This document shows positions 3,992 through 43,924 of a DNA stretch of 58,737 bases, in pieces (within the stretch, counting starts at the first letter, position 1; each line of letters opens with the position of its first letter). The position numbers and the translations under genes were made by a program. Where the stretch lies: positions 1 through 58,737 of the IMG/VR virus record IMGVR_UViG_3300000968_000001, one strand, 5' to 3'. Source of the DNA: a virus. The notes beneath the pieces were generated by a model. The model was not told the DNA's origin, did no database searches, and was given only the letters and a program-made list of their open reading frames with translations.

Positions 3992-4060
3992 TAATAATAA
4001 ATCGTGAGTGCTCTCAATATAAGTTTACGCATCAATAGTATTCTTACAAGATTTATGTTA

Positions 4061-4081: not shown

Positions 4082-4121
4082 GTTGACGGGTGGTATTACT
4101 TAATGGTATTGGTTGGTTGTT

Positions 4122-4640: not shown

Positions 4641-4784
4641 AGAATTTAAAATACTTAGCCTTAATTAGTTTAGGGTGGTCTTTTGGGTCTTGTGATTTCT
4701 CCGATAAGTTAAGTTCATTAGTCTCATTTGCTGGGGTAGTTTTATCTGCGTGTCTTTGTCTGATTTATTTATTTAGAGGTGAGT

Positions 4785-5351: not shown

Positions 5352-5392
5352 CGGCGCGTTGGTCGCTCAATAAAAGAAACGCGGAATAAAGT

Positions 5393-5416
5393 AAGCACGC
5401 TGTGAAGCGTCCTGAA
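5393..5416 (+). promoter_or_regulatory. Conserved 24-mer AAGCACGCTGTGAAGCGTCCTGAA, copy 1 (ACGCT-GTGA-AGCGT hairpin)
   Basis: Exact repeat of 8725..8748; ends 6 nt before the TerL ATG at 5423. Confidence 0.7.
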
Positions 5417-5422
5417 ACACTT

Positions 5423-7420
5423 ATGAACTTAGAAGAACTACACCAGAGATTTGACGGATTCCCTACTGACGCCAGTAGGGCGGAAATGATGTCTCTTGCT
5501 TATACGAAAGTTAATTGGGAGGGGGTTAAGCACCGTGATCAAGTTTCTTCTGTATTAATGGGCAATGTTGATTACTGGAATAGCGGTGAGTTCTCTAGCC
5601 CATTGCAAGCAGAGTTATCTATCCTTAGGGGGGTGGATCAATATAAGTGGCATACAGAGCAACCATTTGGAAAGCCTATGTGGGAGCATCTATGCTGCTT
5701 AATGAAGCTCCTTAATCCTCAAAAGACAGATATACTCACTGGACTCTATGACTCAGCACAAGCTTTCTGCATATTACTAGGGACGGGCGGGAAGGTGCTT
5801 AATCAGTTAGGTGCGCGGTCAATGAGTAAGACGGGTGGTAATGTCCGATTAATGAGAGCATTAATGACCATTAAGCCAGAAAAGACGATGTTGTTCATTT
5901 CTTGCCCTACTGAGAAGGTTTCGGACACGGGCGCATGGGGTGACTTCAGGGCTATCTCAAATGACGCTCATAAAAACAATCCGCACCTATTCCCTGACTA
6001 TAAGGATTACAAAGATCGATTAGTTAGATTCATCAATAGTGATGATAAGTTCGGGGTGGCAATGGCTCGAACAACTGCTGAGGCGGGTAACTACCAAGGA
6101 ACTAAAGGGCATGAAGATGGTGATGGCTTCATCATTGTTTTTAATGAGGAGATCAATAAGCATCCAAGGTCTGCTTACATGGAGATTGAGGAGAATGTTA
6201 CCTCAAATAGACAGTTCATGTTCTTCAACGCTTGGAACTGGAAGAAAGATACCGATATGGGCGCAGTTGTATCTGAGCCTGATGCAGAGCGTTGTCAACT
6301 TAAGCAGCATAGTGATATTGATATAGATAATGATCAAGTCTATGATTGCGTAGGGGAGGGGCTTACAGTGCGATATGATGGGTTGTATTCTATCAACATG
6401 CTAGCGGGGCAGAGGCTTACTCCATATACCTTCTTTAATTACCAAGATGACTTCATGCCGCTACTCAAAAGGTATGGAAAAGAACACCCAACCTTTAAGT
6501 CACAAGCTAGAGCATACCCAGGTGCTAGCGGGGAGCACGAGACAGTTCTTTCACAAACAACCGTATTAAAATCTAGGTATAAAGATGTATTCACGGTTAA
6601 GAAAGTTATTGGTCGCACGGCGTTCTTAGACCCTGCATTTGGAGGGAAGGACTCACCTGAGTTTAGTTGGGCTGAGACACAAGAGATTTGGTATCACGAT
6701 GGAGGGGATGCCAAGGACAGGAAGGTTGCTACCGTTCTCGTATGGAAGGATTACATTAGAGCATTGAAGTTAGTTGCTGAAGCTCGATGGAATGACTTCT
6801 GGATAGAACGCGCTACGAACGCGGGTTTAATCATGACTCATGTTAAGCCTAATGAGCCTATTAACTATTCTGAGCAACTGGTGGTGCAAGTAGCGGAGAA
6901 GTGCAAGCAATACGACATTCCGTGGCGGAACTACGGGTTTGATTTCTCTATGGATGACACGATCATGACAGCTCATGATAAGCTTATGGGTTTTGATCAT
7001 AGTCCGTATAAGTATAATGTCACTAAGCTGGATGGGATTGAACTACCTCACCTCAATACAAACAGTAAGGATTTGTGCTACAATAAGCGTGACGAACTAT
7101 TTTTCCAAGCAGCAGGTATGTTTGAGAATCAAATGATCAGGAATGGAATGTTCATTGATCCAGCTATTGATGATTTATGCCGAACACGCTACGATGTGCG
7201 CGGGAGTAAGCGTAAGATTGAAGATAAAGCGGAGTTTAAGAAAAGGAACAGAGGACGTTCCCCTGATAAATTAGATGCCATGGTTGGCAACATAGACATG
7301 GCTAGAAGAAGAACAGGCTTGAAACAATTAAAGATGTCTGTTAAGAGTGTGAAACCTCAAAGCTTTTTTAGTGGAGCAGTGAGTGAATTTAATAAGGTAA
7401 GAAAAGGATTAAGATTTTAG
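5423..7420 (+). CDS. terL: Terminase large subunit
   Basis: Walker A-like GARSMSKTGG, Walker B-like GFIIVFNEE, nuclease motifs AFLDPAFGGKD and SPDKLDAMVGN; size and position upstream of the portal. The track start, GTG 5402, lies inside the conserved 24-mer, so ATG 5423 is preferred. Confidence 0.85.
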   Translation: MNLEELHQRFDGFPTDASRAEMMSLAYTKVNWEGVKHRDQVSSVLMGNVDYWNSGEFSSPLQAELSILRGVDQYKWHTEQPFGKPMWEHLCCLMKLLNPQKTDILTGLYDSAQAFCILLGTGGKVLNQLGARSMSKTGGNVRLMRALMTIKPEKTMLFISCPTEKVSDTGAWGDFRAISNDAHKNNPHLFPDYKDYKDRLVRFINSDDKFGVAMARTTAEAGNYQGTKGHEDGDGFIIVFNEEINKHPRSAYMEIEENVTSNRQFMFFNAWNWKKDTDMGAVVSEPDAERCQLKQHSDIDIDNDQVYDCVGEGLTVRYDGLYSINMLAGQRLTPYTFFNYQDDFMPLLKRYGKEHPTFKSQARAYPGASGEHETVLSQTTVLKSRYKDVFTVKKVIGRTAFLDPAFGGKDSPEFSWAETQEIWYHDGGDAKDRKVATVLVWKDYIRALKLVAEARWNDFWIERATNAGLIMTHVKPNEPINYSEQLVVQVAEKCKQYDIPWRNYGFDFSMDDTIMTAHDKLMGFDHSPYKYNVTKLDGIELPHLNTNSKDLCYNKRDELFFQAAGMFENQMIRNGMFIDPAIDDLCRTRYDVRGSKRKIEDKAEFKKRNRGRSPDKLDAMVGNIDMARRRTGLKQLKMSVKSVKPQSFFSGAVSEFNKVRKGLRF

Positions 7421-7422
7421 TT

Positions 7423-8124
7423 ATGGAGCCGATTAAAACAATACTATCAAGAAAGCCATATTTCAGATGTGCGGATAGAAAGAACCGCAAGGTTACGGAT
7501 TGCTTAGTGCGTGGTCGCCCTACAGAGGATTACTGGAGTGTTAAGTTCGTATTGAATGGCGTTCCTTATGAAACACCGAAAGGGAGGTGGAAAGAATCAA
7601 TAGAGTTAATGCGTGATGTATTAATTGTTAATGGCGTAAAGGATGCTGAATTAATCGCAGGCACATCGTGCAACTACGATTGGTTGATTAAGTCAAAGAA
7701 AGAGAATCAGTTAGTCGATCCAGAAACGCTTTTAAACTCCAGTGAGTTAGTCAACTTAACGATTACTCAAGGAGTGGTTACTGTGGAGAAAGAAGAACGT
7801 GAATTTAAAAGCCCTGATTTCTGGGGTGCGATTGACTGGCAGTATATGGGAATGGAGTTAGGATTCGATGACGTGACGGTAAGCAGCTTTAAGTCATTAA
7901 TCAATCGTGAGGCTCGAAAGCTTAATCCAGCACTTAATCCTAGCCGTGGATGTGAAACGTGCTATGGTCATTGGCTAGAGGCTATTAAAGGGTATAATCA
8001 CACAGTTACTACAGTTGATGGCGCGAGGAAGTGGCTATGGGAAACACACAACGAGGTTAACAAGCGGGAAGGGAAAGAAATCTTCTCATGGGACGATGCA
8101 GTTAAGCAATACGGATGGGATTAA
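7423..8124 (+). CDS. Erv1/ALR-family FAD-linked sulfhydryl oxidase-like protein (C-terminal domain) with an unknown N-terminal domain
   Basis: GCETCYGHWLEAIKGYNHTVTTVDGARKWLWETHNEVNKREGKEIFSW shows CxxC, then W..HNEVN...GK..F, as in ALR (PCEECAEDLRK...WLCHLHNEVNRKLGKPDF). Confidence 0.7.
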   Translation: MEPIKTILSRKPYFRCADRKNRKVTDCLVRGRPTEDYWSVKFVLNGVPYETPKGRWKESIELMRDVLIVNGVKDAELIAGTSCNYDWLIKSKKENQLVDPETLLNSSELVNLTITQGVVTVEKEEREFKSPDFWGAIDWQYMGMELGFDDVTVSSFKSLINREARKLNPALNPSRGCETCYGHWLEAIKGYNHTVTTVDGARKWLWETHNEVNKREGKEIFSWDDAVKQYGWD

Positions 8125-8125
8125 T

Positions 8126-8428
8126 ATGGAGGAAATGAAGGTGAAGGAGTTTAGTGTATGTAATGCGGATTATTTCTTAAAGCAGATTACTGGGGATGAA
8201 GTTGCAAAATTTAGGCTGAATGGGTCAAAACTCATTCCTATTTACCCATTCATGTATAGCGAAGGATTAGAGTATAAGAAACTCAAGAGATTAGAGTATG
8301 GCTCAGAATTAATGATCGTGAGTAATCCTGATTATAATAAGAAAAGAGAAAGTGATGACCTAGTATATTGCTTAACTTACCGAAAAGAAAGCGACACCTT
8401 GGTTAGTGGATACCTAGTGAGGGATTAA
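8126..8428 (+). CDS. Hypothetical protein (100 aa)
   Basis: ORF 8015..8428; the ATG at 8126 follows the upstream stop by 1 nt. Confidence 0.55.
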   Translation: MEEMKVKEFSVCNADYFLKQITGDEVAKFRLNGSKLIPIYPFMYSEGLEYKKLKRLEYGSELMIVSNPDYNKKRESDDLVYCLTYRKESDTLVSGYLVRD

Positions 8429-8429
8429 T

Positions 8430-8606
8430 ATGGATATATCAGAACAGGAAGACGCGCTCTACAATGAGCTTTACGCTATGATTATGAGGTTCAGTTCAAC
8501 GAATGGAGAGTTTGACCCAACTGCATACCAAGCAATCGGAGCAATGGAGAAAGTTAAAATAGACCTACTTACCGATTGGGATGTAGTCCACGAAGACTTT
8601 GAATAA
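8430..8606 (+). CDS. Hypothetical protein (58 aa, MDISEQEDALYNELYAMIMRF...)
   Basis: ATG 1 nt after the upstream TAA; below the track cutoff; followed by a strong hairpin. Confidence 0.45.
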   Translation: MDISEQEDALYNELYAMIMRFSSTNGEFDPTAYQAIGAMEKVKIDLLTDWDVVHEDFE

Positions 8607-8610
8607 AAAA

Positions 8611-8641
8611 CAGGTAGCGTCACCCCAAGAAACGCTACCTG
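8611..8641. terminator. 10-bp hairpin (caggtagcgt/acgctacctg) between the TerL operon and the portal
   Basis: Perfect 10-bp stem and 11-nt loop; A6 upstream but only a weak T tract downstream. Confidence 0.4.
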
Positions 8642-8724
8642 TTAAACAATGAATATAACAACAGAACACGAAGTAATATTGATATGCGTAATTAAAGCAC
8701 ACACATAAAAAGAAGTCAAACCAA

Positions 8725-8748
8725 AAGCACGCTGTGAAGCGTCCTGAA
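8725..8748 (+). promoter_or_regulatory. Conserved 24-mer AAGCACGCTGTGAAGCGTCCTGAA, copy 2
   Basis: Exact repeat of 5393..5416; its last A is the A of the portal ATG. Confidence 0.7.
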
Positions 8749-11051
8749 TGATGAAAACAAAAATAAAAACCAAGTCACGGTTCTTTAAGTCTATTGAAGA
8801 AATCGAAAGGAAGCGCGAGCAGTATGATACTGTTGAAAAGCAAAGAGAGAGAAGATTCTTAAACGCAGTTCAGCGATTCTTTGCTGGGCTATCACAATTA
8901 CAGCAGAAGTATAAGCTCTCAGAGTGCGATGAAGAGGATGAGATTACGAATTACTTGATCGGATTCCCACTAATCCAAGCGCACAGAGATCAATACGCTG
9001 ATATGTTCAATGGCACAAATCGCCTCGTGCAGGTTCATTGCGTCAATACAGGGGATGTTAATCAAGAGGATCGTGACGGGAGAATCATCACGGAGGAGTT
9101 TAACAAACATATCATTAATTACGGCAAGGAAATTCCTAACCTCCTGAAGAGGATTTGCGATGAAGAGATGTTGTGCGGAGTAGCTATCTCGGTTCTCCCT
9201 GAGACAATGGGCTACATTCCTAATATTGAGCGTGACATAATCTTTCCTGAACACACGCGAATGGAGTCGAAAGATTTATCATTCTTCTGGCGACCTGTAA
9301 ACCTCTCCACAAAAGATCTGCTAGAATACGCTAACGACCCTAATGAGGAAGATAAGGACTACATCAATAAGGAAGCGATTAAAGGACTCCTAGAAGAGAT
9401 CGAGGAGAATATCAAGAATGGCGGTCGAGGAAGTGGATTCTGGAACAATGGGCAAACAGGCTCATATACTAAAGATTATCATAATGGATATGATGAGTTC
9501 TACACAGTTCCCACAGATCGAGATCTTCCCGCTCAGTGGTATTATGAAGTTCAAGAGGACGGAAGCTTAAGCAAGACCCTATACATTGAGAATCCCAGAA
9601 ACACCAAGAGCAATACGGAGATCATGTATATCAAGGGAGATGAGAAGATTCTAGCAGAAGACCTCATCGACTTCGCGAGCGTGCAAACCATGTTTGGTGG
9701 TGACGAGTATTTAGAATCAGCAGTTGGCTACATGCAACTCATCTATAACTTTTCCCTAGAGGAGACGGAAATGATTAACCGTGCGGCTGATCATATTAAT
9801 GAAAAGTTAAATGATGCCTTTGTCTTGGACGAGAATATCACATCTAAGGATGAAGCTAACCGATATGACAGACAACACAGCAAGTATCGTCCTGCTGGAT
9901 TGATGCGAGATAAAGATATGCCACGGATGCAGGAGTCGTTCCAGCTTATGGACTGGCTATCGCGAAAGTCAGAGCAGATCACAGGCACAACCCAGAGCAA
10001 TGCCCTAACCACGGATGGAAGATTCTCAGCAGAGTTTAAGCAGCAGGTAGCAGTCAATGGGAACAAGATGAAGACACTCGCGGCTATCCGTTACCGCAAC
10101 ATGCAACACCTCTTCCGAAAGATATTTATCCACGTTCTTAGAATGTGTGATGACATGGATAGAGTCGAAGAGATTAAGCCCCATGGATGGGAAGGTGTTA
10201 AGATATTCAAGGATTGCTTAAAACGAAAAGGAGTAAACCTCAAGAAATACAGCAAGCGTCTAGGAGGTCGCTTAAAGCACCTAGAAGTCAAAATAGATAA
10301 GGTTTTAGCACCTGGCGACCCACAATCATTCGAGGTGGAATCGGAGTCATTAATGAGCTTGCTACAGCACCTAGATCCCGTGGCGAGAAACCTCGCTAAA
10401 TATAAGCTTCTAGCCTCTAGGCATGGTTCAGACCACGCTGACGAACTCATGGGTAACACCCAAAAGCTCTCTGAGGTAACGCGAGATCAAGAGGAGCTTG
10501 CTTGGCTTAAGGTCTTCAAAATTAAAGAGAAAGCGGGAACTAACCAAAATGTTGAGATCGAGAATGGAACAGTCCACCAGTTGCACGCACTGGTCATGTT
10601 CCAAGCCCTAGAAGGGATGATTAATAAGGCGCAGATGGGGAGGCCGTGGACAGGCGCAGACACCCTAGAAGCGTCAGCCATCAATAACCACGCTGTAAAC
10701 CTAATTAATGCAGTGATGGAGCAAGGCTATGAGATGGAGGCTAAAGTTCTATACGAGCAATTTCTAACCTATCAGGAGGCTATTAAACAACTCTCAGCGG
10801 TTGCTGATCAACAATCACAACAGCAATCAAGCTCAGAGGATGAAATAAGAGCACATGAGTTAGCTCTAAAGATTCAGAGACTAGAGCTAGATCGGGATAA
10901 ATTCCAACTAGCACAAGCAAACATCCAGCGACTTCAGCAGAGTAATCAACTCAATGACCAACTGAAGATTAACAAGCATCAGGCTGATAATGTCTTCAAG
11001 GCAGAGAACCTAAGAATCCAAGATAAAAACGCATCACGAAATGAACGCTAA
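8748..11051 (+). CDS. Portal protein (putative)
   Basis: 767 aa, sits between TerL and the scaffold-like gene, Gln-rich coiled-coil C-terminus. Assigned by size and synteny only. Confidence 0.6.
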   Translation: MMKTKIKTKSRFFKSIEEIERKREQYDTVEKQRERRFLNAVQRFFAGLSQLQQKYKLSECDEEDEITNYLIGFPLIQAHRDQYADMFNGTNRLVQVHCVNTGDVNQEDRDGRIITEEFNKHIINYGKEIPNLLKRICDEEMLCGVAISVLPETMGYIPNIERDIIFPEHTRMESKDLSFFWRPVNLSTKDLLEYANDPNEEDKDYINKEAIKGLLEEIEENIKNGGRGSGFWNNGQTGSYTKDYHNGYDEFYTVPTDRDLPAQWYYEVQEDGSLSKTLYIENPRNTKSNTEIMYIKGDEKILAEDLIDFASVQTMFGGDEYLESAVGYMQLIYNFSLEETEMINRAADHINEKLNDAFVLDENITSKDEANRYDRQHSKYRPAGLMRDKDMPRMQESFQLMDWLSRKSEQITGTTQSNALTTDGRFSAEFKQQVAVNGNKMKTLAAIRYRNMQHLFRKIFIHVLRMCDDMDRVEEIKPHGWEGVKIFKDCLKRKGVNLKKYSKRLGGRLKHLEVKIDKVLAPGDPQSFEVESESLMSLLQHLDPVARNLAKYKLLASRHGSDHADELMGNTQKLSEVTRDQEELAWLKVFKIKEKAGTNQNVEIENGTVHQLHALVMFQALEGMINKAQMGRPWTGADTLEASAINNHAVNLINAVMEQGYEMEAKVLYEQFLTYQEAIKQLSAVADQQSQQQSSSEDEIRAHELALKIQRLELDRDKFQLAQANIQRLQQSNQLNDQLKINKHQADNVFKAENLRIQDKNASRNER

Positions 11052-11274
11052 ACAAGAATGGCAAACTATAGATACCGCGCCAGAAGGAGAAGAAATAATC
11101 CTTCATGGGAAGAAGTGGGGAGGAGACTTTATAACGATGGTAGGGCAAATAGAAAAAATAAGAGGTTCTAGGTATATAAACCCTATTGGAGCTGATGGTT
11201 ACAATGTGGAGCCTAGTCTCGACCGTGAAAACGTAACCCACTGGATGCCTCTACCCCAACCACCGACAACTTAA
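11041..11274 (+). CDS. DUF551-like small protein
   Basis: W..IDTAPEGEEIIL...VTHWMPLPQPP pattern typical of DUF551. Confidence 0.5.
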   Translation: MNAKQEWQTIDTAPEGEEIILHGKKWGGDFITMVGQIEKIRGSRYINPIGADGYNVEPSLDRENVTHWMPLPQPPTT

Positions 11275-11275
11275 T

Positions 11276-11539
11276 ATGACAGCTAAAGAATACTTAGAAA
11301 AGAACTTAGGGGGGCTAGCTTTAAGCAAAAGCCACAACAAAGCCATTAAGATCAAAGCAATGGTAGATATAGGGTTAATCCCTGTCCTACAGGAGCTTAT
11401 CGAGGATTACACCGATATGGCAGAAACCGATAATGAGCTATGGCAAGCAAAAGGCATTGTCCGAGCATTGGGAGATATTCGCGCCCTAAACCAATACGCT
11501 CTCATGAGCCAAGACGAAGAATCTAAAAAAACTAAATAA
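11276..11539 (+). CDS. Hypothetical protein (87 aa)
   Basis: ATG ORF tightly packed in the head operon. Confidence 0.55.
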   Translation: MTAKEYLEKNLGGLALSKSHNKAIKIKAMVDIGLIPVLQELIEDYTDMAETDNELWQAKGIVRALGDIRALNQYALMSQDEESKKTK

Positions 11540-11541
11540 TC

Positions 11542-12999
11542 ATGTCAAAACATCAAGATAACAAGAACGAAGCTAGTGATGAACTCGCAAGCTTACTAGG
11601 AGAACAAGACCCTACATTTGCTATGCCTAATAACACTCAGCGTAGCACACCAAGCCCAGAAAAGGAAGAAGTGGAGGAGGTTGTAGAAGTCGAGCCAAAA
11701 CAAACTGAAGGGCTAGATGGAAATGGCATTCCGCTTTCCACGGAGCCTAGCGAGGAGATTCCATCGGATGATGATGACCTAAAGAAAGAAATCGAAGCAT
11801 TAAGTGCTGAAGAGTTTTCTGAGGAGAAGCCTAAAGAAGATGATGGAACAGACTGGTCAGAGCTAGAGGAGTTTTCCCCAGAGGATTACACCAATAAAGA
11901 AAAGATCCCCGCTATCCGAGAAGATAACCGCAAGAAGTCACTAGAAGCGAAGAGACTACGTGAAGAGAAGATTCAGTATGAGAGTCAGCTTGAGGAGTTA
12001 CAGGCTAAGGTTCAAGATTACGAACAGAAGGTTAAGAGTCAAGAGCCAGTAGTTAACGCACATGAAGATCCTGAGTGGCAGCGCATCAATACCGAGGTAG
12101 TCTCCAAAGCTAAAGCGTTTGATAACGACCTCATGCTAACTACAGGATCATCTATACCTCTCGCTTCAGGCGAAAGGTTTGAGAGTTTGTTCACTGAGTA
12201 TCAGCAGGTCAATGATGACGCACAGAGCAAGCGGGAATTCCTAATGAAAGCATCCCTAGAGCTAATGGGGAAAAGTGATTCCATCACGGATAATATCATT
12301 GATGGAGAGTGGGATATTAAATCTACGTTATCAGAGCTAGAGCCAGATGAACGAATCTCTGTAACACAGGCGATTAAGAGCTTGGATGGAGTCCTATCTT
12401 TTGCTTCAGAGTCATCCTCTAAGCTTCGTAAAATCGAGGCTGATATTAATGAGAACTCAGGCAAGTATCTAGCAGAGTCACGTATCAAGAAGTATGAGGA
12501 AAGCTCAACCAGCTTCCGTGAGTCGCTTAAGGGAGTAGGCATCTTAGATGAACAAGCGGTAGAGAGTGACCCTAACTCATTCAGCGCATTCATTCATGAG
12601 CGTATGTCCGACCCTAAGAACAAGGGGAATATCGAAAGCGCAATCAAGATGCACACGGAATATAAGCATGGTCGCCCGCAGATTAGCGAGAAGGTTTATG
12701 AGAGCTTTGAGCTTGAAGGCAAAGACCGCAAGTATGTCGATAAGATGGCTGATGAGGCGCATTCTAAGAGGGTGGCTAGCATGGATAAAGAGATTCACAT
12801 GTATCTCTCTAACCGCGAGTTAATCCAAGAAGCTGTCCGTCAATACAACAAGGCGCAGAAGAAAGCAGAACTCAAAAAGAAAGAGAAGAAGCAGGTGAGC
12901 AGCGCAGAGACATTACCTACTCGAAAGGAGTCCACATCTAAAGATTCGGGTGATGTAGACCACTTAGCCTCACTTCTTAATTTCAACCCTAGACGATAA
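11542..12999 (+). CDS. Scaffolding-like protein (acidic, coiled coil, no Cys noticed)
   Basis: Highly acidic, E/K-rich 485-aa product located between portal and capsid. Confidence 0.45.
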   Translation: MSKHQDNKNEASDELASLLGEQDPTFAMPNNTQRSTPSPEKEEVEEVVEVEPKQTEGLDGNGIPLSTEPSEEIPSDDDDLKKEIEALSAEEFSEEKPKEDDGTDWSELEEFSPEDYTNKEKIPAIREDNRKKSLEAKRLREEKIQYESQLEELQAKVQDYEQKVKSQEPVVNAHEDPEWQRINTEVVSKAKAFDNDLMLTTGSSIPLASGERFESLFTEYQQVNDDAQSKREFLMKASLELMGKSDSITDNIIDGEWDIKSTLSELEPDERISVTQAIKSLDGVLSFASESSSKLRKIEADINENSGKYLAESRIKKYEESSTSFRESLKGVGILDEQAVESDPNSFSAFIHERMSDPKNKGNIESAIKMHTEYKHGRPQISEKVYESFELEGKDRKYVDKMADEAHSKRVASMDKEIHMYLSNRELIQEAVRQYNKAQKKAELKKKEKKQVSSAETLPTRKESTSKDSGDVDHLASLLNFNPRR

Positions 13000-13243
13000 G
13001 GGTTGACAGAGATAGTAATCATTAGCTATAACTGCTGAAGAGAAAAAAGTAAGGGTGCGCGAACATCCCCACTTTAGTTCATTAGATGAGCATTTCTCAG
13101 AACCGATCAAGCTGTAAAAACAGCCTTACTAGTTCGTTGATTATTGGCATAATCTTCAGGCTCCACACGGTTACCACTAACTTTGTGGAGTCTGTTTTAT
13201 AATTATTGACTGACTATTGATTTGTAGTATCTTAATAAAGCAA

Positions 13244-13334
13244 GCCCTCCAAGCCTCTGATACATCAAGGACGTGTTATAGACTCGCAAGCGGATCATTA
13301 CCGCGTTTAGTGTATCGTGCTTAATTTGGAGGGC
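13244..13334 (+). ncRNA. Candidate structured RNA closed by a 9-bp helix (gccctccaa/ttggagggc)
   Basis: Nested pairings gataca/tgtatc (13259-64/13311-16) and gcgg/ccgc (13290-93/13301-04). A TTGACT-N16-TATCTT box at 13206-13233 would start transcription near the helix. Confidence 0.2.
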
Positions 13335-13472
13335 GTTCAAATTATAAAGGACATTGACTTAAATTTCATATATTTACCCCTTCCACTGACAGTCTTCCGC
13401 TGTAATGGGGATCACGAATAAACGTGTGAGTCTTTAGATCGTGCGCGTGCGACTATCGGTTAGGGTTTTATA

Positions 13473-13500
13473 TTGACTAAAAAATATGTTTGATTATATT
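13473..13500 (+). promoter_or_regulatory. Sigma70-like promoter TTGACT-N16-TATATT upstream of the tRNA/HNH cluster
   Basis: Hexamers read directly from the sequence. Two further ATTGACT boxes at 13206 and 13354. Confidence 0.3.
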
Positions 13501-13561
13501 ACTACTCATCACAATTAGATTTATCTCATCAAGTTGATTCTTGGTTAGCTGAATTGTATTT

Positions 13562-13624
13562 TAACTCCGTAATATCGAAGGCTTACGTTATGCATAATCT
13601 ATTGATGTAGGTATTGCGGAGTTA
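13562..13624. other. Long hairpin (12 bp including one G-U) enclosing the palindrome TTATGCATAA
   Basis: taactccgtaat (13562-73) pairs with attgcggagtta (13613-24); the inner 10-nt perfect palindrome is at 13588-13597. Confidence 0.4.
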
Positions 13625-13732
13625 TGACACTGGGAAAGACTAGATTAAATGCTATTCCAGAGAATCCCGACTCATAATCGATGCGAAGAACTCTTTAATG
13701 TGGGAGTCATTAGATTAGCTCCATAATGAATC

Positions 13733-13805
13733 ATTCCTGTAGCTCAATGGTTAGAGCGGGCGACTCATAATCGCTAGGTTCTCGGTTCAAGTCCGAGCGG
13801 GAGTA
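13733..13805 (+). tRNA. tRNA with anticodon CAT (elongator Met, or Ile2 if lysidine-modified)
   Basis: Hand-folded cloverleaf: acceptor ATTCCTG/CGGGAGT, D arm GCTC-AATGGTTA-GAGC, anticodon arm GGCGA-CTCATAA-TCGCT, T arm CTCGG-TTCAAGT-CCGAG, discriminator A; no encoded CCA. Confidence 0.85.
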
Positions 13806-13812
13806 TCCTAAA

Positions 13813-13852
13813 GCGCATGTGGCCAAGTGGTTAAGGCGGAGGTTTGCAAAAC
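13813..13852 (+). pseudogene. Truncated tRNA-Cys(GCA) 5' half (acceptor to anticodon loop + 2 nt)
   Basis: GCGCATG-TG-GCC-AAGTGGTTAA-GGC-G-GAGGT-TTGCAAA-AC, after which homology stops. No ACCTC partner, T arm or 3' acceptor follows locally. Confidence 0.6.
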
Positions 13853-13868
13853 AAAATAAAATAAACGA

Positions 13869-14339
13869 ATGAAGAAATTGAAATTTTACAAAAGGATCAG
13901 AGTCGATGGAAAGACAGTCCTTGAGCATAGGCACTTGATGGAGGTCAGTATAGGGAGAAAATTAAAAACCTTAGAGCATGTCCACCATAAGGATGGAGAT
14001 ATATTTAATAATGATCTGAGTAACTTGGAAGTTTTGAGCGCATCTGATCACGCTAGATTACACTTTACAAAAACTAACAAGACTTATTCAAAATGCGAAC
14101 TTTGTGATGAGGTGTGTGATGGCTCAAGGAGGTTTTGTGGCGTAAAGTGCTTTGACTTATGGAGGTCGAGCCTTATTCCAGATAAGGAGACTATAGTATC
14201 AGACCTCCTTTCTAGCGAGACATTTACATCACTAGGCAAGAAGCACGGAGTTAGTTGTAACGCATTCAGGAAGTGGTGTGTAAAGTATGGCTTGCCTAGC
14301 AGACTCAAAGAGAGGAAGCATTGGGTATTATCTCATTAA
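13869..14339 (+). CDS. HNH homing-type endonuclease
   Basis: LEHRHLME...LEHVHHKDGDIFNNDLSNLEVLSASDHARLH (HNH_3-like) plus a C-terminal Cys/HTH-like region; sits between the tRNA-Cys half and the full tRNA-Cys. Confidence 0.85.
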   Translation: MKKLKFYKRIRVDGKTVLEHRHLMEVSIGRKLKTLEHVHHKDGDIFNNDLSNLEVLSASDHARLHFTKTNKTYSKCELCDEVCDGSRRFCGVKCFDLWRSSLIPDKETIVSDLLSSETFTSLGKKHGVSCNAFRKWCVKYGLPSRLKERKHWVLSH

Positions 14340-14346
14340 TTTTAAA

Positions 14347-14426
14347 GCGTGTGTGCCTGAGTGGTCTAAAGGGTTCGATTGCAAATCGAATATTATTCGT
14401 GAGTTCAAATCTCTCCATGCGCTCCA
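14347..14426 (+). tRNA. tRNA-Cys (anticodon GCA) with encoded CCA
   Basis: Acceptor GCGTGTG/CATGCGC (two G-U pairs), D arm CCT-...-AGG with GG in the loop, anticodon arm TTCGA-TTGCAAA-TCGAA, T arm GTGAG-TTCAAAT-CTCTC (one T-T mismatch), unusual 8-nt variable region, T + CCA. Confidence 0.75.
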
Positions 14427-14435
14427 ATTACTCTC

Positions 14436-14456
14436 ATTAAACTGATTGTGGCTACA
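14436..14456 (-). promoter_or_regulatory. Conserved 21-mer, copy 2 (reverse orientation), 8 nt upstream of the TTGACA of the capsid promoter
   Basis: attaaactgattgtggctaca is the exact reverse complement of TGTAGCCACAATCAGTTTAAT. Confidence 0.7.
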
Positions 14457-14464
14457 TTTCTTGT

Positions 14465-14493
14465 TTGACAAAACCGCATCAATAGTTTATAAG
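14465..14493 (+). promoter_or_regulatory. Sigma70-like promoter TTGACA-N17-TATAAG for the capsid-like gene
   Basis: Consensus -35, 17-nt spacer, 5/6 -10, followed by a roughly 200-nt hairpin-rich leader before the ATG at 14698. Confidence 0.5.
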
Positions 14494-14697
14494 GGGTATT
14501 CAAGGCTTACGAACTCCCTATTCCAAAGGGAGCAACTGCATAAGAAATAAAGAGAACTTGGCGTAGATGGATCAGCCACCATCCTCAACACATTTCAAAG
14601 CGGTGGATAGGGTTAGCATACTATCTGGAAAAGGAAATTAGAAACCAATCGGGAAATCCGTTTGGTAAACTTATTTAATCTTAAACCAGATAGAAAA

Positions 14698-16638
14698 ATG
14701 TCAGAAATTTGCTACGATAAAATCCCTGCGGCTATTTACGCCGACAAAGAAAGAAACCAACGATTCTTAATGGATCGTGAAAGAGCCAAGTGGTCTGAGA
14801 CAGATGTTCTCGATAAAGTGGCTTTCCAAGGCCAAATCTCACCTACTACAAACCTAAACATCGTCAAGATGTCTAAGTCTATGGCTTGTCCAGTAGGGTT
14901 TAGTGAAAAGAACTACCAACTAGAGGAGTGCCAACCAGACAATTACGAAGTAGGAACACAAACAGGACGAACTAATTGCGGAGGTGACTCAGAATGCGCT
15001 ACGCAAGAAACCTTAGTTACAAAGAAAGATGGTTCATGTCGCCCTGAGATGTGCGAGATTCCATACGCTCAAGGACACCGCGTTATTGAGCCTTTTGATT
15101 GGAAAGGAGCATTTAAGTCTCAGACCATGTGCGCTGAAGAACTTTATAACCACGGAGGATCACAACACCTTTATGATTACAATGAGGCCGTAAAAGAGCA
15201 CTTCTCTGATTGGCTTACATATAACTATCAGATGAACCTCCTTAACGAGCTTGGGTTGCGTGCAGAATCAAACTCCTCGGAAGGTTGGTCAAATAACGGA
15301 TCAGTTGCATCTAAATACACTTGGCACGGAAAACCTAAAGGTTACCTGTCTATCTCACACCTTAAGCAGTTGCGTAAAGTACTTCATATCAGAGGTGGAC
15401 TAAATGAAGGAAAACTTCGCCTAGAAGGCCCGATGGAGGACTTTATTCGCGCTATCCAAGACTACGAATGCAATGTTCTCGGCAAGCAGTTCTGTGATGT
15501 TTCTTATAACCGTGTCCAATACGAAGATAAAGAAGGAATGCTTCGCGGTCGTGAATACATCGAGTACGAAGGGATTTGCTACTACCGTAATGAATATCCA
15601 CGTAAAGCAATCTGGATCCAGAAAGGTAAATCAGCTTCACTTAAGTATATCTATCCATATGTTGACTCAACAGAAGCGGCTGAAGTCGGATTAATGAAGG
15701 AGGATAACGATGAATACTACGGTGAGTATGTTTACTGTGATGGGTCGTATCACGACCTTATCACAATCTATGATTTCATTCACCCGATGTCATCTAAACG
15801 CTGGACTCTCGATAAACCTATTAACCCTGAGAGTGACAACACCTCAACAGGACTTGAGCTTCACGTAGCTAAAGAGTGGCAAATTCCTTGCAATATCAAT
15901 AAGGATAAGTGGTTCTACTACTCACGCCCTCGTATGAGACACCTCGTTGAATACCCAGAGCATCTAGGCTTCCACCTTGCACTATCACGTGATACAGGCG
16001 GCGGGGAAATTGTTGTTACCACCAAAACATCCAGAATTCCAACTGACAATACCAAGTGCGGAATTCCAACAGTGCCACCTAAGTATGATACATGCGCTGA
16101 TGATGGTTCATGCGCTGAGTGTGATGACACAACTACTTGTGAGGCAGTAACGGCGAGCATCGTTCCATGCCCTAATAAGGAGCTATACTATGAAGGAGTG
16201 TTTGCTGACGGTGACACGCAAGAAGCGGCATACCGCATTGAACTATCTGCACCAGCGTGTGAGGATGGAACAATCGACTACGCCTTCGTTGATGGTGATG
16301 CAGTATTCGGAACTAACTACGATGTAGCTAGTGGCCAAACTGGAACAATTAACGTTGTCGCGGGAGATGCTGAAATCGTAGTGCCATTCACCGTTCTAGG
16401 AGTTGATCCTGACGCTGACGGCGATGCAGATCCAGCAACTATCTCTAAAGTATCTGGAACACTCACTCTCACAGGAGCAACTGGAGGAGTAGAGCTTGCA
16501 ACAGATTGCGTAGAGTCCACCTTCTGCATTATCGATAACTCTAGCGAGTGCGGTAGTGAAGAGTGTGGCGCGGATGCTGATTGCCCTAACTGCACAGGAA
16601 CAGGAAGCGCAGTAGGAGGCGGAACAACAAATCCTTAA
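14698..16638 (+). CDS. Putative major capsid protein with a Cys/Asp-rich C-terminal extension
   Basis: A single gene bracketed by a strong promoter and terminator, downstream of portal and scaffold. About 26 Cys by hand count. No fold-level evidence. Confidence 0.5.
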   Translation: MSEICYDKIPAAIYADKERNQRFLMDRERAKWSETDVLDKVAFQGQISPTTNLNIVKMSKSMACPVGFSEKNYQLEECQPDNYEVGTQTGRTNCGGDSECATQETLVTKKDGSCRPEMCEIPYAQGHRVIEPFDWKGAFKSQTMCAEELYNHGGSQHLYDYNEAVKEHFSDWLTYNYQMNLLNELGLRAESNSSEGWSNNGSVASKYTWHGKPKGYLSISHLKQLRKVLHIRGGLNEGKLRLEGPMEDFIRAIQDYECNVLGKQFCDVSYNRVQYEDKEGMLRGREYIEYEGICYYRNEYPRKAIWIQKGKSASLKYIYPYVDSTEAAEVGLMKEDNDEYYGEYVYCDGSYHDLITIYDFIHPMSSKRWTLDKPINPESDNTSTGLELHVAKEWQIPCNINKDKWFYYSRPRMRHLVEYPEHLGFHLALSRDTGGGEIVVTTKTSRIPTDNTKCGIPTVPPKYDTCADDGSCAECDDTTTCEAVTASIVPCPNKELYYEGVFADGDTQEAAYRIELSAPACEDGTIDYAFVDGDAVFGTNYDVASGQTGTINVVAGDAEIVVPFTVLGVDPDADGDADPATISKVSGTLTLTGATGGVELATDCVESTFCIIDNSSECGSEECGADADCPNCTGTGSAVGGGTTNP

Positions 16639-16651
16639 TCCATAACAACTA

Positions 16652-16683
16652 AGAGCGGGGGTAACCCCTCCGCTCTTTCTTTA
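16652..16683 (+). terminator. Rho-independent terminator after the capsid-like gene
   Basis: agagcggggg-taa-cccctccgctct followed by ttctttaac. Confidence 0.6.
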
Positions 16684-16705
16684 ACCTTTTAAAATTATAT
16701 ATACG

Positions 16706-17956
16706 ATGGCTACTTTTGAATACTTCTTAGACGGATGCTTACCAGACTGTGATTCTGGGGTATTTATTTTCCAACTAGCAACACAGAGCAATATTAGTAA
16801 TTATCCTTCTGAGATAGACATGGTGGTGACTGCCACTGATGATATTATCGTAAACGGAAAGGCATTAAAGAGATACACCCTAAGCTTTGATGAAACACTA
16901 ATTTTCCCTTTAGGTCGCCTTAGTGTTTGCGACCTCAAACAAGATGAAGGAGGCTTTCATGGCTCGCCTTCATGCAAGATTTGCGCTACAAACTGCGAAC
17001 TTGAGGGTGATATAGCAGCGATAAACCAACTCCTTTTAGACAGTGGGATTATATCTGATACATTTATCTATATTGAGAACGCTGACGGGAGCATCACTTA
17101 CACAAATAGTGATGGGACTATTACGGGTATTATTCCAGCATCAGCAGGATTATCCGTTGATTCAGACGGTAATCTAGTTGATTCAGGCGGCACTATTATT
17201 GCAGCTTCTGGAGAGGAGGCCAATATAGCTACAACGATTGATACGGAAGGAAATGTGTCACTCTTGATTAACGGAGTTGAAGCTCATACAGTAACTCACT
17301 GCGAATTGACGGCAAAATGCTTATCTGATCAATCTTTCGCTGAAGACTTAGCTGAGACACTAGAGAAGCATATTGAGATTGAAGACCTTGGGACAACTGC
17401 TCCTGAAGGATCAACCTATGTTTCTGATGGGTCAGGCGGTTTAATCGCAGTGCAAAACGCAGTATATAATAGTCTACCTTCCACCAATCGAGGCAGTGTC
17501 ATTGTAAGCAACCATGATGGATGTATTCGATCATATTACTGGGATGGCAGTGCTTATATTGCAGTCCCTAATGATACATCCGAAGAGTTCGAGGGAGTGC
17601 TTATCTACAGTTCGTCTGGGTTACAAACCGAAACGGTAACCATCCCCACACACTCAGCCTACGCTCCAACTAAAGGGGTTCCAGTAGCGGCTATTGTGCA
17701 ACTAAGAGCCTATGTTAATACTAATGACGGGATTAGCAATGCCAACGCTTCAATCTACAGGACGGCTACAGGATTAAACTCAGGGGCGCGTGCCGCTACC
17801 GCGGTTGCTGATAACGGAAGGCAGTTTGATACTAACGAAGTACGTATCCCTCTAACATCAGCAGGGAACGTCATACTAACATCTACTACTGCGAGCCCTA
17901 TTGGTGGCGCAGGTCAAGCTGATACGGTCGCTTATCTAATCGGCTACAAGTACTAA
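16706..17956 (+). CDS. Tail fibre/spike protein, paralogue 1 (shared N-terminal anchor domain)
   Basis: The first ~100 aa are roughly 60% identical by eye to the N-terminus of 18428..21133, and the C-termini are unrelated. Confidence 0.55.
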   Translation: MATFEYFLDGCLPDCDSGVFIFQLATQSNISNYPSEIDMVVTATDDIIVNGKALKRYTLSFDETLIFPLGRLSVCDLKQDEGGFHGSPSCKICATNCELEGDIAAINQLLLDSGIISDTFIYIENADGSITYTNSDGTITGIIPASAGLSVDSDGNLVDSGGTIIAASGEEANIATTIDTEGNVSLLINGVEAHTVTHCELTAKCLSDQSFAEDLAETLEKHIEIEDLGTTAPEGSTYVSDGSGGLIAVQNAVYNSLPSTNRGSVIVSNHDGCIRSYYWDGSAYIAVPNDTSEEFEGVLIYSSSGLQTETVTIPTHSAYAPTKGVPVAAIVQLRAYVNTNDGISNANASIYRTATGLNSGARAATAVADNGRQFDTNEVRIPLTSAGNVILTSTTASPIGGAGQADTVAYLIGYKY

Positions 17957-17975
17957 CCCTTAACTAATTTAAAAT

Positions 17976-18419
17976 ATGTCAGAATTAAAATATAGAGGCG
18001 GAGTTGCTTACACATGGGGTGAGTCAACGCAGACGGAAGCAGAGTTCACTTCATCACTCAACGAGTATGTATCAAATTACATTAAACAATTTGGCACAGA
18101 GCCAGATTACGTGGACGGAAACAATAAGCCAGAAAAAGCGATTATTGACGAAGCGTTAGCCGCTTATAAATCGCTACAAGCTGAACAAGCACCAGTTGAA
18201 TTCACTATCCCTAGTGCAATCCTCAGGCCATCGCGAGAAGAGTTCGTTAATGAAGTCTACACGCTCGTAACTGAGGGACAAACAATTGGAACCGTAGCAG
18301 TATCACCTATTAATGAGGGAGAATTGGTAAAAGTATCAATAATTAAAAAAGCGTATAACGCACTAACGGACGAACGCAAATCCGAGATAGCTGAATTAGC
18401 TAAGAAATTTGCTCAATAA
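17976..18419 (+). CDS. Hypothetical virion-module protein (147 aa)
   Basis: ATG ORF between the two fibre paralogues. Confidence 0.5.
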   Translation: MSELKYRGGVAYTWGESTQTEAEFTSSLNEYVSNYIKQFGTEPDYVDGNNKPEKAIIDEALAAYKSLQAEQAPVEFTIPSAILRPSREEFVNEVYTLVTEGQTIGTVAVSPINEGELVKVSIIKKAYNALTDERKSEIAELAKKFAQ

Positions 18420-18427
18420 CTAAAAAC

Positions 18428-21133
18428 ATGGCCACATTTAAATATTTACTAGACGGGTGTTTACCAGATTGTGATTCTGGTGTATTCACATTTCAACTAC
18501 TTAGTCAATCAGGCATCACAGGATTCCCTACAGAGATTGATATGCAACTCGTATCTACGGGTGAGACATACGTAAACGGGAAGAAGGTAAAGGAATACAC
18601 CTTTGACTTCGACCTTTCGCTTATTGCGCCACTAGAACGACTTAACTTATGTGACCTAGAACAAGATCCAGATGGTCTCCACGGATTTCCTACATGCAAA
18701 GTATGCGCGTCAACGTGCGAACTTGAGGAGCGTGTAGAAATTCTCGAAGCAAAGGTTGACGAGAATACTCGTTATGACTTTAACTTCACTCGCAGTGGGG
18801 ACAATCTAGTATATACAGCAACGCCCAACGATGGAGGTGCACCTTATACTCAGACCATCCAAGATGTGTTTGTAGATACAGATACGCTCGATGTGTCTCA
18901 ATTTAGTGGAACTGTGAGCAATGGTATTGTTACTATTAACCATTCATCAGGCGGCAATAGTTCAAACATTCAATTCCCCCTCGGAGTATCAAGTGTAGCT
19001 ACTAACTCTAACCCAGATGGTTCAACAACTATTACTTATGTAGATGGAGAAGGCAATACACAAACAGCGGGTGTAATCCCAACAGGTAGTGAAAGCTCTG
19101 TTTTAACTACAACAAACGCTAATGGTTCAGTTACTTATACGCATGATGCAGGAAATGGGGACGCGCCAGTAAGTTGGACAGTGTTCCCGCCAACTATTGA
19201 CACCAACTGTTGCACAACAGATTTAAGACTTAATCCGACAGGAGGAGTAGCTGGAACGCCAGTATATGAGGCGGAGATTACGGATTTAATCAGCGGGGCT
19301 GCAAGCGTCATAGCTGCACCTGCGGGAGTTTCTAGTGATGCTAACAACTCACTCACAGTGGGAGCTGATGGATTACCTTATTACAACGATGTCGATATTG
19401 TTACTGAAGTGACTCAAAACGCCAGTGGTGCATGGGAGGTTACTGAGAATGGAGTCTTAGTAGAGACTATTACGGACACGACTATTGCAGACACTAATAC
19501 CAATGCTAGTATTGTTAATAACGCAGACGGCACGGTAACAATTACGAATGATGCAGGTCAAACTTGGACAAGCGGAGTTACTGCATCATCTGGATGTCCT
19601 GATACATTCGCATCTATTACAGATGAAGATGCTCGTAACGTATCAGCTTCGGGTTGCGGTGACGACATCACCCTCCACAGAACGCTTAACGTAGGGGATG
19701 AGCATACAAGCTCAACTGGAAATGGGGATATTAGCGTTGCATCATTGGACTCTAATCATAGCGCGAGCGGTGGGGTTGTAGGAGTAACTACAGATCACAA
19801 CACTCTAATCGCAAACTCATTAAGCTCAACAGCTACAGGAGCAGGATCTACAGTGGTTAGCTCATGGGAATCTACAGCATCTGGCGTAAACTCCTTTGTT
19901 GCATCATCAACTTTCAGCACGTCCGTGACAGGTAATTTCTCTACAGCTATCAACGCTGGCAGCGGGTTAAATGAAGGAGATTATTCATCGATTTACGGAT
20001 GGCGAGCATTCAACTATGGTGACGGATCATTCGTAAACGGAGGCAATAGATATGTAGGCACTGGATCTTCCGCTGAAAATAGGCTTAATGGTTCTTTTGT
20101 TTACGGAAGAGATGCTAAAAATTTGAATACTGGAGATTACACATTCACGCGGAATAATTTTCTATTCGGAGATAATTCTTTTGTAGATAACAATTTAAAT
20201 TCAGTCTGTTTTGGTGCTACAATTGAATCTGGAGGGAGTCATAATTTTGCATTTGGAAATAATTCAACAATAAGCTTAGCTAGCGGAACCACCTCATCAA
20301 CTGGGGCGACACTAACAGGTGCAAACCAAGCGATTGGGTCTCAAATAACTATCGAGATAGACACCCTTAATGACACTGAGCTTGACTCAAGAGCTGGGGA
20401 TGGGGGCTTAGGAAGATCGACAGGTCTTGGCTATGCTCATTTAATTGAGTCATCCCAAGCAACCTCAATAGGTTACAGAGGCCATGTTTTACCAGGTCAT
20501 AGAAACGCAATGGTCTTAAGTGGGAACAATCAGGCTTCATCGCCACCCACTACATCGACAGGTCTAGCCACCTTGACAGCACTATTTCCGGGAGGATATA
20601 CCTTCTGGACAAATAATGCTCAAACGGTAGGGGTGACACTTACTGGTTCTGGATGGGTATCAACATCTACTAGAGATTCTAAAAAGAACTTCGCAGATGT
20701 AGGAAGTGTGATTGAAGCGGTGGAGAACACTCTCCCTAAAGCGGAATCATGGCAGTATGACGCCGAACTCACTAAGGTGGTAGGGGTAGAAGAAGTGGAA
20801 TACGAATACACTGATATTGACGAATCCATTCAAAGGGAAATTGAAGAACTGGAATCAGAGAGTGCAGATACGAGCGAAAAGCGAAAAGAGTTATCTGAAA
20901 GACTCAAAATAACAAAGAAGGTTACAAGAAAGAAAAACATCATTTCTGAGGAGCAGCCAATATTTATTGGGTATATGGCTGAAGACTTCTCGAAACTAGG
21001 ATATGGATCATCTACGCAAGGCATCGAACCCTTGCAACTTGCAACCATAGCACTAGAATACGCAAGGGAGGTTAAATATATTAATGATGAATTAACATCT
21101 AGGATTGAAAAGCTTGAAAATACCATTAAGTAA
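18428..21133 (+). CDS. Tail fibre with a C-terminal intramolecular chaperone (peptidase S74-like) domain
   Basis: Shared N-terminal domain, Gly/Ser/Thr/Asn-rich repetitive body, ...STRDSKKNFADVG... and a C-terminal coiled coil (LQLATIALEYAREVKYINDELTSRIEKLENTIK) typical of auto-cleaving chaperone domains. Confidence 0.65.
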   Translation: MATFKYLLDGCLPDCDSGVFTFQLLSQSGITGFPTEIDMQLVSTGETYVNGKKVKEYTFDFDLSLIAPLERLNLCDLEQDPDGLHGFPTCKVCASTCELEERVEILEAKVDENTRYDFNFTRSGDNLVYTATPNDGGAPYTQTIQDVFVDTDTLDVSQFSGTVSNGIVTINHSSGGNSSNIQFPLGVSSVATNSNPDGSTTITYVDGEGNTQTAGVIPTGSESSVLTTTNANGSVTYTHDAGNGDAPVSWTVFPPTIDTNCCTTDLRLNPTGGVAGTPVYEAEITDLISGAASVIAAPAGVSSDANNSLTVGADGLPYYNDVDIVTEVTQNASGAWEVTENGVLVETITDTTIADTNTNASIVNNADGTVTITNDAGQTWTSGVTASSGCPDTFASITDEDARNVSASGCGDDITLHRTLNVGDEHTSSTGNGDISVASLDSNHSASGGVVGVTTDHNTLIANSLSSTATGAGSTVVSSWESTASGVNSFVASSTFSTSVTGNFSTAINAGSGLNEGDYSSIYGWRAFNYGDGSFVNGGNRYVGTGSSAENRLNGSFVYGRDAKNLNTGDYTFTRNNFLFGDNSFVDNNLNSVCFGATIESGGSHNFAFGNNSTISLASGTTSSTGATLTGANQAIGSQITIEIDTLNDTELDSRAGDGGLGRSTGLGYAHLIESSQATSIGYRGHVLPGHRNAMVLSGNNQASSPPTTSTGLATLTALFPGGYTFWTNNAQTVGVTLTGSGWVSTSTRDSKKNFADVGSVIEAVENTLPKAESWQYDAELTKVVGVEEVEYEYTDIDESIQREIEELESESADTSEKRKELSERLKITKKVTRKKNIISEEQPIFIGYMAEDFSKLGYGSSTQGIEPLQLATIALEYAREVKYINDELTSRIEKLENTIK

Positions 21134-21146
21134 TATTATCATTTTT

Positions 21147-22115: not shown

Positions 22116-22116
22116 C

Positions 22117-23628: not shown

Positions 23629-23630
23629 TT

Positions 23631-43888: not shown

Positions 43889-43924
43889 TTTTTTATTGAC
43901 GTGTTTTAATATGTGTGGTTTAAC

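Follow-up and report, generated by a model that had tools for sequence, protein, structure and literature searches.

The closest described counterpart of the locus reported here is SegB, a free-standing GIY-YIG homing endonuclease encoded in the tRNA cluster of phages T4 and T6. SegB recognises a motif in the T-psi-C stem-loop, cuts the tRNA-Asn gene of T2L and drives the co-inheritance of T4 tRNA alleles (PMC2330249). According to work published in 2026, it is widely associated with tRNA genes and amplifies tRNA-Tyr via microhomology, which allows escape from the Septu defence (PMC13096335). HNH enzymes in phage tRNA clusters are already on record as well, in passages of two papers: F-TflI, -II and -IV of phage T5 are HNH site-specific endonuclease open reading frames (ORFs) in the tRNA gene region that are thought to be expressed from tRNA transcripts (PMC2330249), and HNH genes have been implicated in changes of the tRNA repertoire of cluster M mycobacteriophages (PMC5966550). 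The subject of this report is a tRNA-Cys locus at positions 13813-14426 of the IMG/VR record IMGVR_UViG_3300000968_000001, the whole 58,737-nt stretch of which is referred to as the window. The locus contains an HNH endonuclease gene placed between the 5' half of one tRNA-Cys gene and a complete tRNA-Cys gene of diverged sequence. Our best reading, which we regard as probable by analogy with homologous loci in isolated phages, is that an HNH cassette of the intronless-homing type broke the resident tRNA-Cys gene at its anticodon arm and brought in a replacement allele.

The features of the locus are collected in Table 1. The remnant, which we call the R allele, reads GCGCATG-TG-GCCA-AGTGGTTA-AGGC-G-GAGGT-TTGCAAA-AC. 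It comprises the acceptor 5' strand (GCGCATG), the D arm, the 5' strand of the anticodon stem (GAGGT) and the anticodon loop (TTGCAAA), and it stops at tRNA position 40, after 2 nt (AC) of the 3' strand of the anticodon stem. Its D arm has an A13:A22 mismatch, a typical trait of tRNA-Cys. When this stretch was given to cmscan by itself, so that cut matches count, it scored 24.6 bits (E 7e-4) against the Rfam tRNA model, covering model positions 1-39 of 71. A search of the tRNA-masked window by nhmmer, using a tRNA hidden Markov model (HMM) of our own, recovered the same 40 nt at HMM positions 1-39. The remnant is probably non-functional. A preliminary description of the locus had reported a clean tRNA-Cys 5' half that breaks off 2 nt into the 3' strand of the anticodon stem, with an HNH cassette between this half and a complete tRNA-Cys; both statements hold.

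Table 1. Features of the tRNA-Cys locus in window coordinates.
Feature	Position	Strand	Basis
tRNA-Met(CAT)	13733..13805	+	ARAGORN; Rfam tRNA, 64.9 bits
tRNA-Cys remnant, 5' half (R allele)	13813..13852	+	Rfam 3'-cut match; nhmmer; sequence read
A-rich left junction/leader AAAATAAAATAAACGA	13853..13868	+	sequence read
HNH endonuclease gene, 156 aa	13869..14339	+	Pfam HNH_3; PHROG 15471
Complete tRNA-Cys(GCA)	14347..14426	+	ARAGORN; Rfam, 52.5 bits
8-nt variable region TATTATTC of the complete tRNA-Cys	14391..14398	+	sequence read
23-nt phage-specific motif TTAAACTGATTGTGGCTACATTT	14437..14459	+	4 window copies with at most 2 mismatches, 0 expected

A spacer of 7 nt separates the remnant from its upstream neighbour, tRNA-Met(CAT), and the original cluster consisted of two tRNAs, tRNA-Met and tRNA-Cys. 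The leader AAAATAAAATAAACGA spans the 16 nt from the remnant to the HNH start codon, and an in-frame TAA at 13857-13859 closes the reading frame upstream of the HNH ORF. The HNH stop codon is followed after 7 nt by the complete tRNA-Cys. With 52.5 bits against an Rfam gathering score of 29, an ARAGORN call of tRNA-Cys(gca), the tRNA-Cys identity elements (GCA anticodon and discriminator U73) and an encoded CCA, this downstream copy appears to be a working gene. The motif TTAAACTGATTGTGGCTACATTT begins 10 nt past the CCA, directly before a TTGACA box, and marks the right-hand backbone boundary of the locus.

The locus itself is known from metagenomic assembly only, and one might suspect an assembly artefact or a chance resemblance to a tRNA. 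We consider this hardly credible. An 18.3-kb Logan contig, SRR2835687_1959, is 100% identical to the window over positions 6070-24339, which disfavours mis-assembly, with the reservation that the contig is possibly not from an independent data set. The score of the remnant as a cut tRNA also argues against an artefact, as does the occurrence of the same architecture in finished genomes of isolated phages (see below).

Residues 20-63 of the HNH protein match Pfam HNH_3 with 31.3 bits (cut-off 24.8). Twelve PHROG HNH families were also matched, the best being PHROG 15471, 'HNH endonuclease' (8.7e-23). In an alignment of 17 sequences H40, D42, N47, N48, N52 and L53 are invariant and H61 is nearly so; the four cysteines of a Cys4 zinc finger (C76, C79, C90 and C94) are invariant across all 17 homologues, and a C-terminal helix-turn-helix, GVSDNAVRKWC, is conserved. 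In Pfam the C-terminal domain has only a weak match to HTH_Tnp_1 (E 0.19). The predicted modules of the window enzyme are thus an HNH_3 domain, a Cys4 zinc finger and a helix-turn-helix. An AlphaFold model of the 156-aa protein has a mean pLDDT of 83.5, and its best Foldseek match in the PDB, a weak one, is I-HmuI of phage SPO1 (1u3e; probability 0.97, E 0.26, 63 columns, 22% identity); phmmer found no match for the protein among PDB sequences. I-HmuI has a comparable layout, with the HNH core at the N-terminus and a helix-turn-helix DNA-binding domain at the C-terminus, but its gene lies inside a group I intron of the DNA polymerase gene, whereas the window locus has no intron.

A tblastn search of isolated phages returned full-length homologues with 30-38% identity in phiKZ-like Pseudomonas phages, several unrelated Bacillus phages, and Stenotrophomonas, Erwinia, Enterococcus, Salmonella and Vibrio phages. 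Of the 17 loci examined, 14 have an ARAGORN-called tRNA within 300 nt of the HNH homologue, and in 13 the two are on the same strand. Rfam or inspection revealed further tRNAs, missed by ARAGORN, beside the HNH genes of SOVA965, PBC2 and PHA46; the one in PHA46 is a tRNA-like element just 5' of the HNH gene. At six loci the next tRNA starts in the range from 10 nt past the HNH stop codon to 11 nt before the end of the ORF: it lies downstream in the window, McCartney, SOVA965 and PBC2, and overlaps the ORF in pW2 and L006. No more than a few per cent of each of these genomes is taken up by tRNA clusters, and by our estimate, which is not a computed statistic, the association of the family with tRNA genes cannot be due to chance.

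Genomes that are nearly identical apart from the HNH gene reveal how homologous cassettes are inserted. In phiKZ (NC_004629.1, about 2694-3545) the second tRNA-Asn gene is split by a 772-nt insert between A37 and A38, which contains an 87-nt class-II-like tRNA(GTT) with G73, a hairpin and the HNH gene PHIKZ296. In phiLC, which matches the flanks at 99.4-99.6% identity, the tRNA-Asn is intact, and about 20 near-identical phiKZ-like genomes lack the insert and have an intact gene. The interrupted tRNA-Asn of phiKZ has since changed in the anticodon stem and T loop. BRkr contains an orthologous cassette with the same split, and its 5' and 3' halves have perfectly complementary acceptor strands; in Psa21 only a decayed D-arm remnant is left. 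PEf771 carries a clean 758-nt insert, with the HNH ORF as its sole content, right after the anticodon of tRNA-Lys(CTT), with the two halves otherwise unchanged. In EfV12-phi1, whose flanks are 98.5% identical, this tRNA is intact. A tRNA-like element with a CTT loop that follows the PEf771 split was considered as cassette cargo and rejected: it is also found in the HNH-less EfV12-phi1 and is therefore not part of the cassette.

The third pair, McCartney and QCM8, shows replacement of a tRNA. The upstream flanks are 96.6% identical. QCM8 has tRNA-Gly followed by tRNA-Asp, and McCartney has tRNA-Gly, a 68-nt leader plus HNH gene and, 3 nt further on, a tRNA-Asp that is 72.7% identical to that of QCM8; the acceptor strands are the same, and divergence is seen in the D and T arms and in the anticodon stem. 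Leader and HNH gene of McCartney are 78.6% identical at the nucleotide level to those of PBC2, which is in a different phage subfamily and has different flanking tRNAs. In all three pairs the HNH gene is sporadic among near-identical genomes. The homologues insert at the 3' side of tRNA anticodon loops, after tRNA position 34 (BRkr), 36 (PEf771) or 37 (phiKZ), or an HNH gene together with a diverged isoacceptor replaces the resident tRNA. The window remnant ends at position 40, only a few nt from these points, and the window locus has the topology of McCartney with a longer leftover: a 5' piece of the resident gene, the HNH gene and a diverged isoacceptor.

The PHIKZ296 cassette is another close counterpart of the window locus. 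The protein is homologous to the window enzyme (35.5% identity over 83% of the query), splits a tRNA at the anticodon loop and is accompanied in its cassette by an odd tRNA with the anticodon of the interrupted gene. It differs in its target, which is tRNA-Asn and not tRNA-Cys, and in that its ORF is apparently frameshifted at the N-terminus. Near the start ATGAAAGAAAAAAATAATTAA runs into a stop codon, and the +1 frame, INGYRALYLPEHRQ, matches the N-terminus of BRkr (phiKZ 2914-2990 compared with positions 2414-2500 of the BRkr locus). PHIKZ296 may be decaying, or the A-run at this point may contain a sequencing error.

A break at or near the anticodon loop is also the classic site of bacterial tRNA group I introns, and the PEf771 insert is precise and has a 5' flank ending in U. 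The HNH ORF might accordingly lie inside a group I intron of tRNA-Cys, with the tRNA parts as exons. This is very improbable. Neither the window region (E up to 10) nor any of ten homologous loci (E up to 0.05) gave a match to Intron_gpI (RF00028) or another ribozyme, and the inserts of PEf771 and phiKZ end in A or T, not in the obligatory terminal G; on both counts we take the loci to be gene-disrupting insertions and not introns. Furthermore, the 494-nt interval between remnant and full tRNA is almost wholly ORF (471 nt), there is no in-register 3' exon, the CTC that would complete the GAGGT anticodon stem being absent, and the interrupted phiKZ copy has gathered mutations in its T loop.

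Comparison of the two tRNA-Cys copies bears on how the window locus arose. The full copy reads GCGTGTG / CCTG..AAGG / TTCGA-TTGCAAA-TCGAA / TATTATTC / GTGAG-TTCAAAT-CTCTC / CATGCGC-T-CCA, and its 5' two-thirds constitute what we call the D allele. Of the 40 remnant positions, 28 agree with the full copy, and a further 4 nt of leader are common to both. In the D stem and anticodon stem most pairs differ between the alleles by fully compensated double changes; the acceptor stem differs solely on its 5' strand. In the full copy's own acceptor stem, GCGTGTG pairs with CATGCGC through two wobbles, U4.G69 and G5.U68, and the GCGCATG of the remnant forms seven of seven Watson-Crick pairs with the same 3' strand (14416-14422). 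For background, we took 177 phage tRNAs of the retrieved loci and tested the acceptor 5' strand of each for pairing with the 3' strands of all the others. Among 31,078 cross pairs having different 5' strands, only six were Watson-Crick at all seven positions, and the seven other tRNA-Cys genes in the sample reach at most five of seven with the remnant. Because perfect pairing is so rare, the remnant and the 3' end of the full tRNA must be related: they are the two ends of what was once a single gene, or else close paralogues.

Two other oddities lie between the D allele and this 3' end. The first is the 8-nt variable region TATTATTC, which can be divided into TAT + TATTC; at the same position other tRNA-Cys genes of the sample have TATTC (L006), TATAC (L022) or TGTTC (L013). 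An out-of-register join in the variable loop would give such a sequence, and TATTATTC is a candidate for a recombination junction between D and R, or for a slippage duplication. The second is a T-stem mismatch, U50:U64, flagged by cmscan. No separate resident 3' half is present between the tRNA-Cys and the backbone motif 10 nt further on. Our counts agree with the preliminary description, which had put the two 5' halves at about 70% identity, had pointed out the perfect partnership of GCGCATG with CATGCGC as well as the two G-U wobbles of the full copy, and had remarked on the odd variable region and the T-stem mismatch. It had gone on to propose a scar of gene conversion. The part of that proposal in which a mobile HNH cassette left the recipient 5' half and installed a donor allele is well founded by analogy with the homologues; the donor-5'/recipient-3' chimera is only plausible, as it fits the acceptor pairing, the compensated D and anticodon stems next to an acceptor stem changed on one strand, the TAT duplication ahead of a canonical TATTC variable loop, the T-stem mismatch and the lack of a recipient 3' half elsewhere. 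We judge the case for a downstream tRNA-Cys composed of a donor 5' part and the resident 3' end to be evenly balanced.

The events would then have been as follows. A free-standing HNH cassette would have invaded the resident tRNA-Cys gene directly after tRNA-Met, the HNH enzyme recognising and cutting tRNA-gene DNA at the anticodon arm. Repair off a cassette-bearing donor would have copied in the HNH gene and a diverged, presumably cleavage-resistant, tRNA-Cys allele; immunity of the donor allele is plausible because all five of its anticodon-stem pairs are unlike those of the remnant. On the left, the broken end would have been joined without homology, so that resident positions 1-40 stayed behind as a dead remnant and became the leader of the HNH mRNA. 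On the right, the exchange most likely fell within the tRNA itself, at the variable loop or the T loop, so that the functional tRNA-Cys would be the donor 5' two-thirds fused to the resident 3' end. The anatomy of the locus, the family of its nuclease and the behaviour of the homologues are observed; what the enzyme cleaves, how and in which direction the event at the window locus proceeded, and the chimeric junction are inferred.

A number of observations weigh against this scheme. Two or more G.U pairs in the own acceptor stem are found in 29 of the 177 phage tRNAs, and wobble pairs alone are therefore no proof of a chimera. The single T-stem mismatch can be a point mutation, and the downstream tRNA may be wholly one allele. 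We found no report of cleavage by any member of the window's HNH subfamily. The window protein is without the N-terminal NGY...P.H segment of most homologues and may be decaying. In phiKZ the tRNA precedes the HNH gene and both target halves are kept, unlike the arrangement in the window. Finally, no HNH-less or donor-type relative of the window phage was found in viral, metagenome and genome collections, and the two contigs with a homologue of the protein encoded immediately downstream, L001 and L002, are without any tRNA at the site.

Some of these observations would suit a different history, in which two long-diverged tRNA-Cys paralogues stood in tandem, the HNH gene entered the first of them or the gap separating the two, and the first gene lost its 3' half. 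The downstream tRNA would then be a single native allele and its oddities its own. The frequency of phage tRNAs with two or more acceptor G.U pairs fits this history, and a diverging stem is expected to begin with C-to-U and A-to-G changes opposite G and U. Moreover, tRNAs beside homologous HNH genes are generally odd, examples being phiKZ's class-II-like tRNA(GTT) and the tRNAs that ARAGORN missed in SOVA965 and PBC2. We nevertheless regard tandem paralogues as unlikely. The D and anticodon stems are compensated and the acceptor stem is not, its 3' strand matching the remnant exactly; a separate and precise deletion of the 3' half of the first gene is needed; and the 3' end of the tRNA lies 10 nt from the backbone motif, as expected of the resident's own end.

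The search for relatives of the window locus covered proteins and DNA. Viral contigs yielded no relatives of the 646-aa flanking protein or of the HNH protein. Among 5.8 billion proteins the flanking protein has two homologues, in L001 (68% amino acid identity) and L002 (51%), and exact-protein look-ups returned one contig only, identical to the window. The homologous intergenic region of L001 is only 257 bp long; relative to it, window positions ~13000-14436 are extra sequence, situated between the stop codon of the upstream gene and the promoter-associated motif. Neither DNA patterns designed for an intact tRNA-Cys of the remnant type nor a degenerate pattern for both alleles matched anything in viral or metagenome contigs; in genome contigs the degenerate pattern gave one chance match that is not a tRNA and one distantly similar tRNA-Cys in an array of 31 tRNAs. 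The intact remnant-type anticodon arm was matched once in viral contigs, inside a coding region, and blastn of the region against isolated phages gave generic tRNA-Met similarity only. The window phage is a rare lineage. An integrase-type att duplication was considered as a source of the repeated tRNA sequence and rejected: the duplicated part is the 5' half and the copies are ~70% identical, and the neighbouring ORFs have no PHROG match, no integrase scan of the whole window having been made.

The likeness to SegB extends to several features. Both systems consist of a free-standing nuclease gene among phage tRNA genes that is tRNA-associated across phages; SegB cuts tRNA genes of phages that lack it, with co-conversion of flanking tRNA alleles, and rearranges or amplifies tRNA segments via microhomology. 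The preliminary description had compared the locus to SegB with an HNH enzyme in its place, and this functional resemblance is upheld. Membership of the window enzyme in the GIY-YIG/SegB family was considered and rejected, Pfam finding HNH_3 only, and the GIY-YIG fold is unrelated to HNH_3. The target also differs, being the T-psi-C stem-loop for SegB and the 3' side of the anticodon loop for the insertions of the window family, and half-tRNA scars are not described for SegB in PMC2330249 or PMC13096335. The F-Tfl enzymes probably represent a different HNH subfamily: no T5-like phage is among the tblastn matches listed, and the passage on F-Tfl in PMC2330249 does not report splitting of tRNAs. 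A literature search found no paper on the split tRNA-Asn of phiKZ, on the HNH subfamily of the window or on its anticodon-arm insertions, which is no proof of novelty.

The window locus and its homologues add a second nuclease family, unrelated to SegB, that has its footprints in anticodon arms and leaves recognisable half-tRNAs and replacement alleles. They offer an explanation for pseudo-tRNAs, for oddly structured phage tRNAs and for mosaic tRNA arrays between related phages. A more far-reaching reading, which we consider somewhat less likely than not, is that the family comprises undescribed, widespread HNH/zinc-finger/helix-turn-helix homing endonucleases that specifically invade the anticodon arms of phage tRNA genes, carry replacement isoacceptors or create them by recombination inside the gene, give rise to split, chimeric and odd tRNAs (such as the class-II-like phiKZ tRNA(GTT)) and are a main driver of allele turnover in phage tRNA arrays. 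If so, tRNA allele turnover may be adaptive against host nucleases that target anticodon loops; SegB was recently shown to reshape tRNA loci so as to defeat host defence (PMC13096335). The same architecture is present in phiKZ, and about 20 near-identical isolates are free of the cassette, which opens the proposed mechanism to direct tests in this tractable phage.

Several further observations were made on tRNA arrays. The Bacillus phages PBC2, Izhevsk and Thrax1 have syntenic tRNA arrays in which orthologous tRNAs of one and the same phage pair have identities between 0.52 and 1.00 and the HNH gene occupies a different position in each phage. This pattern suggests frequent gene-by-gene allele replacement. 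The distantly similar tRNA-Cys mentioned above is in L008 (JACPRD010000130.1), an 88-kb contig labelled 'Planctomycetota MAG' with 31 tRNA genes in 3.7 kb (3997-7652); its D arm resembles that of the downstream allele of the window. The contig may be a phage or a mobile tRNA array.

In the window, an Rfam DUF3800-VIII hairpin RNA is predicted at 13561-13625 on the plus strand (42.0 bits, gathering score 40.2, E 7.4e-6), just 5' of the tRNA cluster and 3' of a promoter-like TTGACT-16-TATATT at 13473-13500. Positions 13668-13680 are an exact 13-nt duplicate of the tRNA-Met anticodon arm, CGACTCATAATCG (13761-13773), 93 nt upstream of it. This may be a second, older tRNA scar; we did not adopt it as one, the surrounding sequence not being recognised as a cut tRNA. 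The other copies of TTAAACTGATTGTGGCTACATTT are at 4058-4080 (-), 43869-43891 (+) and 55383-55405 (-), and each of the two plus-strand copies is immediately followed by a TTGAC box. L001, the relative without tRNAs, has a related motif after the stop codon of the upstream gene and before the promoter box. TTAAACTGATTGTGGCTACATTT is probably a phage-specific promoter or operator element. Finally, the window encodes an Evr1/Alr-type sulfhydryl oxidase (7423-8124), and the 646-aa protein immediately 3' of the tRNA-Cys (14698-16638) is rich in cysteine. These two proteins point to virion proteins rich in disulfides, which may be why the phage carries a tRNA-Cys.

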